Sequence record: DRR723986_7325
Length of the DNA stretch: 35,704 nt
Strand: one strand, 5' to 3'
The notes below the pieces were generated by a model. The model worked only from the letters and a program-made list of their open reading frames with translations. It was not told where the DNA came from and did not search any database. Of this stretch, positions 2-19,577 are shown piece by piece (positions within the stretch are counted from its first letter, which is position 1; every line of letters starts with the position of its first letter). The position numbers were made by a program, and so were the translations under genes.

Positions 2-844
2 CTGAACCTGCTCTTCAATCTCGCGGTGCCGATCGCATTGGCAACCATCGCGCAGATGATGATCATCATGGTCAACGACATCGACCTGTCGGTCGGGACG
101 TTCGTCAGCTTCGTCGCCTGTGTTACGGCAACCTTCCTGAACGATGCGCCGCTCGTCGGTGCGGCTATCCTGCTCGCATCGATCTTCGCCTATGCGGCCA
201 TCGGCGCGCTCATTCACATTCGCCAGCTTCCGGCAATCGTGGTCACGCTCGGCATGTCATTCGTCTGGGGAGGCCTGGCGGTTCTGCTGCTGCCATCGCC
301 GGGCGGTGCGGCACCGGCATGGATCCGAACGGTGATGACCGTCAAACCGCCACTGGTGCCGATGGCGGTGGTGGCCTGCATCCTCATCGCCGGTCTGACG
401 CATCTTTTGATCATGCGGTCCTCGACGGGCACGCTGTTGCGCGCAGTCGGCGGCAACGCCCAGGCGGTCGCCCGCTCCGGCTGGTCGGTCACGAAACTGA
501 AGGCAGGCGCCTATGCGCTTGCCGGCTTCTTCGGTGTCCTGGCCGGTATCTGCCTCGTCGGACTGACAACGTCGGCCGATGCCAATATTGCGCTGCGCTA
601 CACGTTGCTCTCCATCGCCGGAGTGATCCTGGGGGGAGGAGAGTTCACGGGCGGCCGGGTTTCGCCTGTTGGTGCGGTTCTCGGTGCGTTGACACTCGCG
701 CTCGCCGGAAGCTTCCTCTCGTTCATGCGCCTGTCGCCGGACTGGCAGATCGGCGCCCAGGGCGCGATCCTCATCCTTGTGCTGGCGGTGCGGCTGATCT
801 TTTCGCGCCGCAGCCGGAAATGGAAGGGAGCCGAAAATGGATAA
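2..844 (+). CDS. Sugar ABC transporter permease (RbsC/BPD_transp_2 family), 5' end outside the window
   Basis: Frame open from base 2 (LNLLFNLAVP...); hydrophobic helices, IDLSVG motif, 'AVGGNAQAVARSG' loop, 'SIAGVILGG' motif. Confidence 0.9.
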   Translation: MNLLFNLAVPIALATIAQMMIIMVNDIDLSVGTFVSFVACVTATFLNDAPLVGAAILLASIFAYAAIGALIHIRQLPAIVVTLGMSFVWGGLAVLLLPSPGGAAPAWIRTVMTVKPPLVPMAVVACILIAGLTHLLIMRSSTGTLLRAVGGNAQAVARSGWSVTKLKAGAYALAGFFGVLAGICLVGLTTSADANIALRYTLLSIAGVILGGGEFTGGRVSPVGAVLGALTLALAGSFLSFMRLSPDWQIGAQGAILILVLAVRLIFSRRSRKWKGAENG

Positions 845-15763: not shown

Positions 15764-16720
15764 ATGTCTGCGATCGTGAAGCATCCTTTCCTGCAGCGCC
15801 TGCTGCGTGTTCCGCCGGCGTACTACGTGTTCGCCATCCTGCTGATCACGCTCTGGATTGCCAGGCCGCACATGCTCAACGCCAATATCATGGGCATCTT
15901 CATTCGCCAGGTGGCACCGCTCGGCGTGCTGGTTCTGGCTCAGTTGCTGGTGATGCGTGTGAAGAGCATCGACCTTTCCGGCGGTGGCATCATCCTGTTG
16001 GTCAACTACTTCATTTCCTCGGGCATCTTTACCGGGGCGTCGATGCCGTTCTTCATCGGGCTAAGTCTGGCAACCGGCACCGCGATCGGTCTCTTCAACG
16101 GCTGGATGATCGGCAAGCGCCGGGTTTCTGCGGTTATCGTCACACTGGCGGTCAGCATCATCCTGGTCGGGTTCGTGCAGTATCTTTCAAGTGGCAAACC
16201 ACCCGGTGACGTGCCGTCCTACCTGAACGACATCTACAACATCAAATGGGGTCCGGCCCCGGTTCCTGTGCTGTTCTGGTTTGCCCTGACCGTGGTGATG
16301 GCGCTGTTTCTCTCAAAGACAGTGTTCGGCAGATATGTCACTTCGGTCGGCGAGAACCCGGAAGCCGCGCATTTTTCAGGGGTACCGGTCGAGCGGACCG
16401 TCATTCTCGCCCACACGCTGGCCGGTTTCATCGCAGCAGTAGCAGCCCTGGTGCAAACCGCCTCCATCGCGGTCGGCAGTGTCCGCGTCGGTCTCGATCT
16501 GCCGATCCTGGCAGTGGCTGCAACCATTCTCGGCGGGGTCGTCTTCGGCCGGGGTGAAGGCGGTGTCTGGGGCCCGTTCTTCGGGGTCCTGTCCTTCGCC
16601 CTCCTGTTCGTGGTGATGACCACTTTCGGCATCGATGACCCGGGCAAGCTCATCGCCCAGGGGCTGATCATCCTGCTCGCCGCCATCTTCTACGGCATCA
16701 GAACGTCCAGATCCAATTGA
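15764..16720 (+). CDS. Sugar ABC transporter permease
   Basis: Start re-set to ATG 15764 (MSAIVKHP), 2 nt after the previous stop; IDLSGGG, VGENPEAAHFSG, VAATILGG. Confidence 0.92.
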   Translation: MSAIVKHPFLQRLLRVPPAYYVFAILLITLWIARPHMLNANIMGIFIRQVAPLGVLVLAQLLVMRVKSIDLSGGGIILLVNYFISSGIFTGASMPFFIGLSLATGTAIGLFNGWMIGKRRVSAVIVTLAVSIILVGFVQYLSSGKPPGDVPSYLNDIYNIKWGPAPVPVLFWFALTVVMALFLSKTVFGRYVTSVGENPEAAHFSGVPVERTVILAHTLAGFIAAVAALVQTASIAVGSVRVGLDLPILAVAATILGGVVFGRGEGGVWGPFFGVLSFALLFVVMTTFGIDDPGKLIAQGLIILLAAIFYGIRTSRSN

Positions 16721-16749
16721 GCCTTTCCGTAAAATTTGAGGAGGAAACA

Positions 16750-17430
16750 ATGGCAAACGAAAAGTCGATACTTTGCTTTGGGGATTCGCTGACCTGGGGC
16801 TGGATCCCCGTTGTGGAAGGCGCCCCGACAATGCGCTACCCGTATGAGCAGCGCTGGACGGGGGCAATGGCCGCCGAGCTGGGCGAAGGGTACCGGATTA
16901 TCGAAGAAGGTCTCAGTGCCCGCACGACGAGCGCCGATGATCCCAACGATCCCCGTCTGAACGGTAGCCAGTACCTGCCGTCGGCCCTTGCCAGCCACCT
17001 GCCGCTGGATCTGGCGATCATCCTTCTGGGAACCAACGACACCAAGCCGTTCTTCAACCGCACGCCCTATGACATTGCCTATGGCATGTCGAAGCTGGTC
17101 GGGCAGGTGCTGACAAGTGGTGGCGGCATCGGCACGCCTTATCCGGCGCCAAAGTGCCTGGTTGTTGCACCGCCACCCCTGACGCCTATGCCGCATCCCT
17201 ATTTCCAGGGCATGTTTGGCGGGGCCCACGAAAAGTCGGCGGCGCTGGCAGAGCAATACCGGAACATGGCCGATTTCATGAAGGTCGATTTCCTCAGCGC
17301 GGCTGACCACATCACCACTGACGGCTGCGACGGCATTCATTTCACTGCCCAGAACAACATCGACCTGGGCGAGGCCATTGCCGGAAAGGTTCGGGAGATC
17401 CTGGACCGGCAGCAGGCCGAAGCGGCTTGA
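16750..17430 (+). CDS. SGNH hydrolase / acyltransferase-perhydrolase, MsAcT-like
   Basis: Start ATG 16750 after GAGGAGG; ILCFGDSLTWGW, EEGLSARTT, DPRLNG, HLPLDL, GTNDTK, VLTSGGGIGTPYPAPK, DGIHF, collinear with M. smegmatis MsAcT as recalled. Confidence 0.92.
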   Translation: MANEKSILCFGDSLTWGWIPVVEGAPTMRYPYEQRWTGAMAAELGEGYRIIEEGLSARTTSADDPNDPRLNGSQYLPSALASHLPLDLAIILLGTNDTKPFFNRTPYDIAYGMSKLVGQVLTSGGGIGTPYPAPKCLVVAPPPLTPMPHPYFQGMFGGAHEKSAALAEQYRNMADFMKVDFLSAADHITTDGCDGIHFTAQNNIDLGEAIAGKVREILDRQQAEAA

Positions 17431-17461
17431 TACTCCTGGTTCAGACCTGACAACTCTCCTT

Positions 17462-17506
17462 GCCGCCCGCCAGTCTAGCCAAAGCATGTGCGGGCGGCTT
17501 GACTTT
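17462..17506 (+). terminator. Probable intrinsic terminator of the ABC-SGNH operon
   Basis: 9-bp stem GCCGCCCGC/GCGGGCGGC (19-nt loop) followed by TTGACTTT. Confidence 0.5.
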
Positions 17507-17534
17507 GCACGAAATTCTTCGCAACTATCCCGTC

Positions 17535-17650
17535 ATGAACAAAGCCGCCGCGACCAGCTACAAACGAGATTTCAGAGCTATCCCCAAAGCGGGAGAGTAG
17601 CCCCCGGCTCGGCTGTCATGCGCCCCGAGCCTCGGGGTAAACACTTGAGA
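17535..17650 (+). promoter_or_regulatory. Putative leader module 1: 21-aa uORF (17535-17600, MNKAAATSYKRDFRAIPKAGE) plus hairpin 17602-17637
   Basis: Translated by hand; stop TAG abuts CCCCG-GCTCGG...CCGAGC-CGGGG hairpin; same layout recurs at 18232-18356. Confidence 0.5.
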
Positions 17651-17782
17651 TGATGCAACAGGAACCGGCCCTGCCGGTCGAAATCATCGAAGCGCACAAA
17701 TCACCACATCTTGAGACTTAACTCCGCCGTCCGGACGTGATCCGTCCATTGGTGCCTGAAGGCACCCGGCAAGGGGGACTTT

Positions 17783-18229
17783 ATGCGCGAACCGACTGAT
17801 TTTGCTTCGAAGCCTGACATCGTCATCGGCACAACCGACTATGAACGGCTGGAAGGCCTCGCTTCCTCGTTTGAAACACGATTGCCAAATGTCACGGAGG
17901 ATCTCCTGACCGAATTAAGCCGGGCCAGACTCGTCCCAGACGGGGCGTTGCCTGCCGATAGTGTGAGAATGGGTTCCGTCGTCCGGTTCCGAACCGACGC
18001 TACGGACGAAAAGACCCTGCAGCTGGTCTTTCCGGGCGACGCGGATATCGCAAACGGCAGGATTTCCATCCTGACACCCATCGGCACCGCCCTCATTGGC
18101 CTTTCCGCGGGTCAGTCGATCGCCTGGTGTGCAAACGACGGACGCCGGCATCGCCTAACCGTCGTGTCGGTCAGCCAGCCGCCGCTCGTCGGTGGAGGTT
18201 CGGAGCTGCAGAGCCCGGATCGCGGTTAG
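17783..18229 (+). CDS. rnk: Nucleoside diphosphate kinase regulator Rnk (GreA/GreB C-terminal domain family)
   Basis: Short N-terminal coiled coil 'DYERL...LLTELSRA', 'VRMGSVVRF', 'LVFPGDAD...ISILTPIGTALIGL..GQSI.W'. Confidence 0.9.
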   Translation: MREPTDFASKPDIVIGTTDYERLEGLASSFETRLPNVTEDLLTELSRARLVPDGALPADSVRMGSVVRFRTDATDEKTLQLVFPGDADIANGRISILTPIGTALIGLSAGQSIAWCANDGRRHRLTVVSVSQPPLVGGGSELQSPDRG

Positions 18230-18231
18230 TC

Positions 18232-18356
18232 ATGACTTCCGGCTCGCCGTTTCACAAACCCCGTTTCCTGGATCACGCAGGCAGTCTTCTCGCAGGAACT
18301 TAGCCCCTGCCGGTCTCTCGCACCCGAGACGGCCGGACAGGGGGAACAGTCTTGAA
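18232..18356 (+). promoter_or_regulatory. Putative leader module 2: 23-aa uORF (18232-18303, MTSGSPFHKPRFLDHAGSLLAGT) plus hairpin 18304-18343
   Basis: Translated by hand; TAG abuts CCCCTG-CCGGTC-TCTCG-cacc-CGAGA-c-GGCCGG-a-CAGGGG hairpin. Confidence 0.5.
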
Positions 18357-18412
18357 GCTGAAACCAGTTCCAACACCGGCCTTCGCCAAAGCGAGGCCGA
18401 AGGAGACACCGC

Positions 18413-18931
18413 ATGCGCGAACCAAAGCAGTTTATCTTCACCAATAAGGACTACGCGACCCTGACCAGAATGGTGTCGCAATGTCCGCGAACCAATACGC
18501 CGTTTGTTTCCCTGCTGCGCCGGAAATTGGCGCAAGCCCACGTAGTGCCCTCATCGGAGATCCCGGTGAACGTCGTCACCATGAACAGCCGCGTGACCTT
18601 CCAGGTGGACGATCATGCACCCGACACGAGGGTGGTCATTCCCGATGAAGCCGACAGTCTTGTCGGCCTGACCTTGCCGATCACGACGGCAACGGGAATG
18701 GCCCTGCTTGGTATGTCGGAAAAGCAGAGCATGGAACTTGCAGGCCTTGGCCGCCAGAGCAGGACGCTGACGGTGATCGGGGTTGCCTACCAACCCGAAG
18801 CCATGGGTGGTGTTCGCAGGGACGTACCGCAAGGTCCGATATCCGCCAGACGGCAAGGCAGGCCTTTTCTGCATCTTGTTCACAGCTCGGATGAAGACGC
18901 AGAGGGCAACCTCGTTCACTTGCACCGGTAA
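18413..18931 (+). CDS. Divergent Rnk-like GreA/GreB family protein
   Basis: AAGGAG SD; 'KDYATL...LLRRKLAQA', 'IPVNVVTMNSRVTF', 'GMALLG', C-terminal 'YQPEA' typical of Rnk. Confidence 0.85.
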   Translation: MREPKQFIFTNKDYATLTRMVSQCPRTNTPFVSLLRRKLAQAHVVPSSEIPVNVVTMNSRVTFQVDDHAPDTRVVIPDEADSLVGLTLPITTATGMALLGMSEKQSMELAGLGRQSRTLTVIGVAYQPEAMGGVRRDVPQGPISARRQGRPFLHLVHSSDEDAEGNLVHLHR

Positions 18932-18942
18932 ATATGCATGAT

Positions 18943-18979
18943 CCGCTGTCGCCCGGCGCCGTATGCCGGGCGACAGCGG
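18943..18979. terminator. Strong hairpin between convergent genes (probable bidirectional terminator)
   Basis: 15-bp perfect stem CCGCTGTCGCCCGGC / GCCGGGCGACAGCGG. Confidence 0.65.
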
Positions 18980-19004
18980 GGAATAGGTTTTGCTCGTCAC
19001 CTTC

Positions 19005-19577
19005 TCAGCTGATTAGCTCTGCCGATGGCGTGCGTTGCCAGGCGAATTGCTCGAAATACGGCTCGATCGGCGTATTGGCCAGCTTGTTGGTGTAATTGCT
19101 CATCACCTTCTGGGAAATGGCAAGCACGACTTCGAGAACCTGTCGGCTGGTGAAACCGGCAGCCAGAAACGCCTCCACCTGCTTGTCGCCGGCCGATCCG
19201 CGCTCGCGAACCATCTGCAGCGTGAACCGGCGAAGCGCCTCAAGCCTGGGCGTCGGCAATGGCGTTTCGTTGCGCAAGGCGTCCGAGACCGCATCATCAA
19301 CGCCCATGCGTTTTGCGATGCCGGTGTGGGAGGGGACGCAGTAGTGGCAATCGTGTTCGACGTTTATCGACTGCCAGACAACTGTCTTTTCCTCGTCCGT
19401 GAAGCTGCTTTCCAGGAAAAGCCGGTGAAGAACCAGATACCCTTCCAGCAGGCCCGGAGCTTCCGCCATGACCGCATGGAGGTTGGGCACGACGCCGAAA
19501 GCAGCCTTTGTTTGTTCGAGCAAGGGTTTGCTGCGATCCGGCGCCGATTGTGCCGTGTGGATTTCAAATTCGGTCAT
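19005..19577 (-). CDS. Carboxymuconolactone decarboxylase / AhpD-like peroxidase family protein
   Basis: 'FGVVPNLHAVMAEAP', E-x11-CHYC-x3-H core (EKTVVWQSINVEHDCHYCVPSH), 'KVMSNYTN'. Confidence 0.9.
   Translation of the reverse strand: MTEFEIHTAQSAPDRSKPLLEQTKAAFGVVPNLHAVMAEAPGLLEGYLVLHRLFLESSFTDEEKTVVWQSINVEHDCHYCVPSHTGIAKRMGVDDAVSDALRNETPLPTPRLEALRRFTLQMVRERGSAGDKQVEAFLAAGFTSRQVLEVVLAISQKVMSNYTNKLANTPIEPYFEQFAWQRTPSAELIS

Follow-up and report, generated by a model that had tools for sequence, protein, structure and literature searches.

A conserved leader-peptide and hairpin module upstream of Rnk-family genes in Alphaproteobacteria, probably a ribosome-sensing control element

Why are two diverged genes of one family, lying next to each other, each preceded by a short open reading frame (ORF) that ends directly at a GC-rich hairpin? 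This question is raised by a stretch of 35,704 nucleotides from sequence record DRR723986_7325 (the window; all coordinates are counted from its first letter), in which rnk (17783..18229, + strand) and a Rnk-like paralogue (18413..18931, + strand) both have this layout upstream. Rnk is a widespread RNA-polymerase secondary-channel factor, and its physiological role and regulation are poorly understood. A first-pass annotation, made from the letters of the window, described the duplicated upstream ORF (uORF) and hairpin and proposed that a ribosome at the uORF stop codon masks a pause-type hairpin. All of the features of this layout are present in the sequence where it had placed them, apart from one-nucleotide shifts of hairpin boundaries. 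We compared the module with its relatives in other genomes. Judged by this comparison, it is a real, strongly conserved and gene-family-specific cis element, and it is probably an undescribed ribosome-sensing control element.

The two modules of the window

Module 1 begins with a promoter-like region (17499..17528, + strand) composed of a -35 box TTGACT (17499-17504) and a -10-like box AACTAT (17523-17528). These boxes put the predicted transcript start at or beside the A of the uORF1 ATG (17535). A scan with an E. coli-style consensus called no promoter at 17499-17528. uORF1 (17535..17600, + strand) starts with ATG at 17535 and ends with TAG at 17598-17600. It encodes 21 amino acids, MNKAAATSYKRDFRAIPKAGE, with the tail ...I-P-K-A-G-E-TAG. 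Directly after the stop lies hairpin 1 (17601..17637, + strand; 37 nt; annotated before as starting at 17602), which is GC-rich, has a CCCCC...GGGG base and is not followed by a U tract. Module 2 has the same order of elements. The ATG of uORF2 (18232..18303, + strand) lies 2 nt past the rnk stop, exactly as annotated; this ORF has 23 codons, ends with TAG at 18301-18303 and has the tail ...H-A-G-S-L-L-A-G-T-TAG. Hairpin 2 (18304..18344, + strand, one nucleotide longer than first given, 18343 being the earlier end) again follows the stop directly. It is 41 nt long and GC-rich, has a CCCCTG...CAGGGGG base and folds at -30.9 kcal/mol (z -4.15), and none of 200 shuffled sequences folded as well.

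Distribution across genomes and specificity for Rnk-family genes

Region 17400-18950 of the window is 96-97% identical in blastn to plasmids of ~270-540 kb from Roseibium aggregatum, R. algicola and Labrenzia strains, and the closest genome compared (G001) carries the same locus at 97% identity. Two Mesorhizobium plasmids match over only 60 nt, which cover the end of uORF1 and hairpin 1 (83-84% identity, blastn against plasmids). Both plasmids carry the rnk and paralogue pair, and these genes are too diverged to match in the same search. When module 1 of Roseibium and Mesorhizobium is aligned, the -35 and -10 boxes, the ATG, the peptide tail and the hairpin fall into line, and the stops in the three sequences are TAG, TAA and TGA. 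Module 2 aligns likewise. Its tail HAGSL(L/I)AG is kept through synonymous changes (GCA/GCG, AGT/AGC and CTT/CTG), and the Mesorhizobium uORF2 ends ...NHAGSLIAG(I/V)-TGA.

Rnk homologues were gathered from 401 genomes of the same order (Hyphomicrobiales), and about 95 loci were taken as a sample; these sequences are kin. A covariance model, R1, was made from a 25-sequence alignment with a hand-given hairpin, and a second model, R2, was rebuilt from 62 hits. uORF1 of the window scores 68.1 bits on R1 and 63.5 bits on R2, and uORF2 scores 34.2 bits on R2. In 5 complete genomes, all 8 of the R2 matches with E<0.01 lie just upstream of Rnk-family genes, one of which is a stand-alone paralogue; three more matches were obtained only at E 0.55-0.72. 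A profile from the same alignment, searched with nhmmer, gave 73 matches with E<0.01, and all 73 are on the strand of the gene and no more than 330 nt upstream of a Rnk-family gene. The carriers are 56 of 90 rnk-like genes, 17 of 46 paralogue-like genes and neither of the 2 greA genes. These counts leave out near-identical Roseibium copies (L001, L002, L009, L012, L102 and L107), repeat loci (L101 and L103-L106) and L109-L111. We also applied a rule that is independent of the models, under which an ATG must lie 33-38 nt after TTGAC and open an ORF of 12-35 codons, at the stop of which a hairpin folds at -15 kcal/mol or lower. This rule holds for 73 of 90 upstream regions of rnk-like genes, for none of 90 reverse complements and for one of 90 gene bodies. 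By the nhmmer search and the rule combined, 75 of 90 rnk-like genes carry the module, and several of the rnk-like genes that lack it are second in an operon whose first gene carries it. A looser count by peptide tail and folding energy was discarded as too permissive, since it accepted 78 of 123 regions against 28 and 33 of 123 controls.

In a sample of the class (151 genomes, one per family), R2 gave four matches with E of 1e-3 or lower, one in G001 and the others in three other families. In two of these three the module is directly upstream of rnk. In the third (L113; G470:C10, oriented 1500-2070) it lies about 500 nt upstream of the Rnk-homologous region, with an ATG frame from about 1771 in between, which could be an N-terminally extended Rnk or an extra gene. 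In a sample of the phylum (151 genomes), R2 gave nine matches in six genomes, all of the same order and all flanking Rnk-gene coordinates; other classes in this sample gave no match under stricter search filters. The carriers include S. meliloti 2011 pSymA (L115), Sphingomonas bisphenolicum pBAR3 and the two Mesorhizobium plasmids. pSymA has both modules, the first at 127,543-127,650 with a uORF of 21 codons and the second at about 128,211-128,315. On A. tumefaciens pAspH13-3a (L116), a divergent pair of Rnk-family genes has a module for each gene, at 469-544 (-) and 733-811 (+), in the shared intergenic region. No module was detected before rnk on the examined plasmids of Cereibacter, Paracoccus, Bradyrhizobium sp. 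195 and S. meliloti LMB1, and in Azospirillum B510 the module is degenerate, its frame continuing beyond the motif. By these matches, the module occurs in many Hyphomicrobiales and in at least three other alphaproteobacterial families, and it is specific to Rnk-family genes.

The first-pass annotation knew of no described family for this layout, and the Rfam scans agree. Rfam has gammaproteobacterial rnk leader families of the Enterobacteria and Pseudomonas types. A cmscan of 16500-19500 of the window at E<=10 returned only three weak, snoRNA-type chance matches, and a scan of L115, L010, L116 and L119 at E<=1 returned none. No description of the module was found in the literature searched, in which work on rnk leaders was gammaproteobacterial only; subscription journals and the supplements of an S. 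meliloti ribosome profiling (Ribo-seq) study (PMC10117765), which list sORFs of 5'-UTRs, could contain relevant data.

Both genes of the window had been assigned to the Rnk/Gre family, and domain and NCBIfam matches agree with this. The rnk product has 148 amino acids and the Rnk_N and GreA_GreB_C domains, and its gene stops with TAG at 18227-18229. In a Pfam and NCBIfam scan it matches NF004396 at 149.8 bits, exceeding the cutoff, and the gene is named rnk in 97%-identical Roseibium plasmid records. The paralogue encodes a GreA_GreB-C/Rnk-family protein of 172 amino acids that scores 77 bits on NF004396, under the cutoff of 109, and shares 35% identity with the rnk protein. It is a diverged Rnk paralogue. 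RefSeq plasmid records call it 'nucleoside-diphosphate kinase' or hypothetical. Because it belongs to the GreA_GreB-C/Rnk family, the first of these labels looks like a misnaming. The rnk pairs of the Mesorhizobium plasmids (L010 and L011) are flanked by genes for a universal stress protein, a CBS-domain protein and a truncated haemoglobin, with XRE and LysR regulators and DUF488 as further neighbours; the setting is one of stress-type genes on large plasmids. On Rhodobacterales plasmids, rnk adjoins mechanosensitive-channel genes.

Start, peptide tail, register and hairpin

The first uORF had been suspected to be leaderless, and its relatives bear this out. In all of the 56 unique first-gene modules (module A), TTGAC lies 33-38 nt (35 nt in 36 of them) before the in-frame ATG, which is the geometry of a leaderless mRNA. 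The uORF is 17-23 amino acids long in 55 of the 56, and in the position logo (n=56) T-35 occurs in 47, A-11 in 31, T-7 in 37 and C-1 in 37. Internal modules (module B) are without the TTGAC box. Their uORF starts 2 nt after the upstream stop or overlaps it, and this implies translational coupling.

Contigs from RNA libraries of two studies, which give neither RNA levels nor true transcript ends, begin at 17555 and leave 17474-17554 uncovered (X6, X7); the upstream gene is covered by a contig whose end is at 17452 in one run and 17473 in the other. This gap hints, if weakly, at a transcript start close to the predicted 17535. A long contig in another run (X2, 92 kb) spans the gap and probably reflects DNA in the library. 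The RNA contigs continue past hairpin 1 into rnk and bridge module 2 to reach the paralogue, indicating that read-through and co-transcription occur.

The anatomy of the peptide was read from 75 unique modules, 72 of which entered a codon table with the Gly codon as position 0. Position 0 is Gly in 63, Glu in 8 and Asp in 1. It is preceded by Ala at -1 in 59 of 72 (GCG 41, GCA 18), by Ile (47), Val (11) or Leu (10) at -2, that is by I/V/L in 68 of 72, by Pro (40) or Leu (23) at -3 and by Arg at -6 in 41 (CGG 18, AGG 14, CGT 5 and AGA 2). Position +1 is variable, and position +2 is a stop in 62. The conserved tail is therefore ...(P/L)-(I/V/L)-A-G-x-stop. Only the last ~8 residues are conserved, and the N-terminal halves differ freely. 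Two types of peptide occur. One, ...F-R-V-C-P-I-A-G-x, precedes the first gene; the other, ...[RH]-A-G-x-L-x-A-G-x, mostly precedes the paralogue and in some lineages precedes rnk. Both peptides of the window have an Asp with six residues between it and Ala-Gly (D-x6-A-G), as annotated, and this Asp is not conserved in relatives. In one locus (L041; G202:C18, ~651-1300, - strand), the rnk ORF runs in frame into the tail of module B, ...LFGGCLLAGS-stop. Either a full-length Rnk would end in the motif here, or there is a frame error of the assembly.

The sequence of the uORF changes as a coding sequence does. The first-pass annotation had proposed to check the uORF frame upstream of rnk-like genes, and the frame is open in 75 of 75 modules with the A-G-x-stop tail kept; in the shifted frames, stops occur in 17 and 2 modules. 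The mean BLOSUM62 score is 0.98 in the uORF frame against 0.13 and 0.35 in the shifted frames, the compared pairs not being independent. Single-base codon differences are synonymous in 50% of cases in frame and in 25% and 23% in the shifted frames. Codon position 3 takes most of the changes, and synonymous first-position changes occur at Arg and Leu codons.

The codons themselves are unusual in genomes this rich in GC. Against neighbouring Rnk-family genes as background, Ala is GCR in 59 of 59 (44%) and never GCC or GCT (55%), Gly is GGA in 39 of 63 (13.5%) and Arg is CGG or AGG in 32 of 41 (31%); p-values for these differences overstate their significance, the sequences being kin. The amber stop of both window modules is not a rule in the family, where TAG (47), TGA (19) and TAA (9) are all used among the 75. 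TAG is still preferred compared with the neighbouring Rnk-family genes (22 of 138), and the base after the stop is C in 64 of 75 modules against 35 of 138 of these genes. The codon skew of the tail together with the preferred TAG indicates a constraint at the level of the RNA or of particular tRNAs, which none of the explanations below accounts for. No runs of codons for one amino acid occur in the listed family peptides. Programmed frameshifting or read-through was considered and rejected by inspection, as there is no slippery heptamer, a variable P-site codon and no conserved downstream frame.

The peptide tail and the hairpin stand in a fixed register. From the end of the Gly/Glu codon to the hairpin base there are 6 nt in 68 and 7 nt in 7 of the 75 modules, those with a displaced stop included. 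In 60 of 75 the stop directly adjoins the hairpin. This refines the annotation: the register is fixed to the Ala-Gly codons and not to the stop, which lies from 0 to 3 or more codons after Gly. In one locus (L018; G241:C1, 2026-2104, - strand), the usual stop is replaced by CAG and the uORF extends into the loop, ending ...PIAESQPPARP-TAG, with the 6-nt register kept.

The hairpin is 24-48 nt long (median 36), and the CCC...GGG base of its stem is nearly invariant. Covariation of this stop-adjacent hairpin, also proposed for checking by the first-pass annotation, was observed. In a 62-sequence alignment, which was fitted to the model and hence leans to structure, 91% of cells are paired and double-sided changes are found at all 7 pairs of the inner helix; the covariation score was reached by none of 500 column shuffles, and sliding the 3' partner by one column lowers the pairing to 57-66%. 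An unfitted MAFFT alignment of 25 sequences gave 91.7% paired cells, with 56-65% in slid registers. In a plain MAFFT alignment of 66 modules, loops of unequal length were misaligned, and RNAalifold accordingly recovered no hairpin.

Other features of the window are kept less well. The untranslated spacer after hairpin 1 (17638..17782, + strand) has more C than G and holds a small hairpin (17751-17766) and a GGGGG Shine-Dalgarno (SD) sequence. Among leaders the spacer composition is C 0.35 and G 0.27, with C>G in 52 of 60, a bias measured within this set of leaders. The second small hairpin (18378..18399, + strand; its start was annotated as 18377) is immediately 5' of the AAGGAG SD sequence of the paralogue and folds at -17.0 kcal/mol (z -2.73), and that before the rnk SD sequence has z -0.69. 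These SD-proximal hairpins are present in the window as annotated, and they are not robust in the family, where the mean z across leaders is -0.83 and 10 of 50 leaders have z<-2. The tail AACAC/AACAG...TTGA that follows both hairpins of the window is likewise not conserved in relatives.

Some further pairings were tried and rejected. Pairing of GCRGG (Ala-Gly) with hairpin bases 3-7 is complete (5 of 5 pairs) in 9 of the 75 modules and lacks one pair in 28, which is no better than the register slid by -2, and module type confounds an A/T association. By inspection, the CGG/AGG Arg codon does not covary with the 5' arm with which it might pair. No consistent alternative, antiterminator-like pairing was found in the leaders folded.

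A candidate attenuator and its alternatives

How could such a module work? We favour, with some reserve, the reading that each module is a cis-acting leader-peptide attenuator in which the dwell of a ribosome at the end of the uORF masks the hairpin. We infer the stalling, the direction of control and the signal. Module A would have its own promoter and give a leaderless mRNA that opens with the three bases of the uORF start codon. As the start of module B overlaps the rnk stop or follows it by 2 nt, ribosomes that have completed rnk would go on to translate this module. Footprint geometry puts the hairpin base some 10 nt downstream of a Gly codon in the P site, where mRNA enters the ribosome. 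One further step, which brings the usual stop into the A site, would need melting of the CCC:GGG clamp. The nascent tail, the poor stop context and the hairpin clamp may together prolong the dwell of the ribosome, and the footprint of the dwelling ribosome would keep the 5' arm from pairing. Without a ribosome, or with one that comes late or leaves quickly, the hairpin would form and lower the expression of the downstream Rnk-family gene; ribosome dwell would be the ON state. The folded hairpin could act via RNA-polymerase pausing or termination, or via RNA processing. Termination may be intrinsic in the few lineages with a U tract and Rho- or pause-dependent elsewhere; the C>G bias of the spacer would suit Rho-dependent attenuation, and T-rich tails in a few lineages would suit intrinsic attenuation. 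The signal may be translation-termination capacity, the distance or coupling of RNA polymerase and the first ribosome, or a small ligand bound by the ribosome with its nascent chain. The distance between ribosome and RNA polymerase would be a logical input for a secondary-channel factor. The mechanism first proposed, with the ribosome at the stop masking a pause-type hairpin, is consistent with the 6-7 nt register and with the scarcity of U tracts. A bolder version is more doubtful, though worth stating: the (I/V/L)-A-G-x-stop tails may be a new class of arrest peptide, whose dwell is set by the GC clamp 6-7 nt downstream and reports coupling, the capacity of termination factors or a nucleotide-type ligand, by which cells would adjust the dose of Rnk-type factors.

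Several observations weigh against the attenuator. Both the residue that follows Gly and the position of the stop vary (G-stop, G-x-stop, G-x-x-P-stop and one read-through into the loop), which is awkward for a strict stall-at-stop model. The skewed codons (GCR, GGA and CGG/AGG) show that some constraint acts on the RNA or on tRNA use and not on the peptide alone, and the kinship of the sequences makes the statistics overstate independence. Hairpin 1 folds at -22.6 kcal/mol with z -1.68, 13 of 200 shuffles being as good, which is not significant singly. The window by itself thus proves little, and that the layout is more than chance appears from the comparison and not from the window alone. 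A terminator scan of the window called none at hairpin 1 or 2. The annotation of hairpins without a U tract is mostly right for the family, where only 4 of 75 hairpins have at least 5 T in the 8 nt after the stem; most are therefore not canonical terminators. No detectable module is present at 15 of 90 rnk-like genes and in most Rhodobacterales examples. Finally, a switch by SD sequestration was tried and rejected. The predicted unpaired probability of the SD sequence and start is 0.415 in the free leader and 0.422 with the footprint blocked (n=60; 4 up, 4 down), unlike what is expected for translational attenuation of the erm/cat type, and a simple translational switch is therefore unsupported.

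Could translation of the uORF alone matter? Ribosomes that load at the leaderless 5' end or arrive from rnk would then shield the leader, as far as the hairpin, from Rho or nucleases. The ratio of leader, rnk and paralogue would be set by the hairpin as a constitutive pause, partial terminator or exonuclease block, with neither peptide-specific stalling nor a signal. The invariant leaderless architecture, the start of module B right at the rnk stop, the C>G spacers in 52 of 60 leaders and the T-rich tails in some lineages all fit this explanation. However, it leaves unexplained the conserved tail with its synonymous variation, the preference for certain Ala, Gly and Arg codons and the C after the stop, and we regard it as improbable, if the best of the alternatives. 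Somewhat less probable still is that the uORFs encode small proteins of ~20 amino acids that act in trans, perhaps by partnering Rnk or RNA polymerase, with the hairpin as an intercistronic stabiliser or processing site. The signature of selection at the amino-acid level is clear, the motif in L041 is an in-frame C-terminus of the Rnk ORF, and peTrpL, the peptide of a leaderless attenuator of S. meliloti, is reported to act in trans (PMC7298713, PMC10117765). Against this, only the last ~8 residues are conserved and the N-terminal halves are free; the divergent types FRVCPIAG-x and [RH]AG-x-L-x-AG-x have in common only the A-G-x-stop end on the side of the hairpin; and the register of 6-7 nt between hairpin and Gly holds in 75 of 75 modules regardless of the stop, which a free peptide would not need. 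A pure RNA or DNA signal (a structured RNA, a protein-binding hairpin, an operator palindrome or a repeat element) with an incidental open frame would suit the codon skew (GCR 59/59, GGA 39/63), the almost invariant CCC/GGG stem base and a DNA conservation of the module between Roseibium and Mesorhizobium that exceeds that of the genes, but it is very improbable given a frame open in 75 of 75 with all three stops, an ATG at a fixed distance from the -35 box in 56 of 56, synonymous first-position changes at Arg and Leu, stems that vary and still keep pairing, unlike an operator, and whole-genome matches only at Rnk-family genes, with no dispersed repeat and no Rfam match.

The attenuator reading can be compared with known systems. 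A conserved tail takes the place of the regulatory codon run of classical ribosome-mediated attenuators (trpL and pyrBI type, of which pyrBI is of the coupling type), and there is no evident terminator/antiterminator pair. The module is also duplicated between two cistrons with translational coupling, unlike these attenuators. It shares with them a leader ORF by a hairpin and, on our reading, a ribosome position that would decide hairpin formation; as in trpL, hisL and pheL attenuators, a short leader ORF, apparently translated by its coding signature, lies upstream of the gene. The leaderless start is shared with the attenuator trpL/rnTrpL of S. meliloti (PMC10117765). Leaders of greA and rnk in Gammaproteobacteria and Firmicutes contain premature intrinsic terminators with antiterminator folds and were proposed as a cis attenuator that possibly also gives a short RNA (Naville & Gautheret 2010, PMC2965389). 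That study found no feature shared by the greA and rnk leaders that it describes, and these are not known to include a leader peptide. GreA is also reported to be autoregulated via its own leader (Dylewski 2019, PMC6829880). Control of the greA/rnk family through the 5' leader is thus common to the module and to these greA (GraL) and rnk leaders (PMC2965389, PMC2836576, PMC6829880), whereas the module has a conserved translated uORF, most of its hairpins are without a U tract, and it has no Rfam match. The intrinsic terminator with antiterminator of the gammaproteobacterial rnk/greA leaders is not characteristic of the 75 modules, only 4 of which have at least 5 T in the 8 nt after the stem. 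The module shares the logic of leader control with these leaders but neither sequence, fold nor terminator, and a conserved leader peptide is added.

Among peptide-dependent systems, the module would work most like stop-codon arrest by TnaC and PepNL. TnaC and PepNL/NanCL (PMC8450073, PMC8429421, PMC11890864) likewise have a short uORF with a conserved C-terminal part before the stop and a peptide within the exit tunnel, and control of the gene downstream is the effect that we propose for the module too. TnaC and PepNL are reported to act on UGA/RF2, whereas all three stops are used by the module, which also differs in having no sequence likeness to them, a displaceable stop and a GC hairpin in a fixed register, and whose stalling is our proposal. 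The elongation arrest peptide of SecM type ends ...GIRAGP (PMC10192921), and the tail of hydrophobic-(R)-A-G is alike, the uORF of S. meliloti pSymA ending ...GIRLIAGS. Unlike SecM (PMC10192921, PMC10951299), the module has no Pro after Gly, a variable next residue and a 20-codon leader instead of a secreted monitor protein, and the resemblance is a lead rather than a sign of membership. Since the defining features of TnaC, PepNL and SecM are absent from the module or, at most, predicted for it, we place it with none of them. The leader-peptide attenuator is a known kind of control, and the Rnk-family form of it, with a conserved tail and register, seems not to have been described before as far as we found.

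What would this mean for the biology of Rnk? A conserved, gene-family-specific leader is a concrete handle on when cells want Rnk. The module adds a candidate family of arrest or termination-sensing peptides in Alphaproteobacteria, with a clean architecture (leaderless, ~20 codons and a fixed register), and leader hairpins without a U tract escape screens for terminator-based attenuators. It is present in S. meliloti 2011 pSymA and on Agrobacterium plasmids, for which Ribo-seq, maps of transcription start sites and genetics exist, so the hypothesis is directly testable. If the bolder version is right, the degree of transcription-translation coupling would feed back on the transcription machinery through a device that occurs twice in each operon and is kept in model rhizobia.

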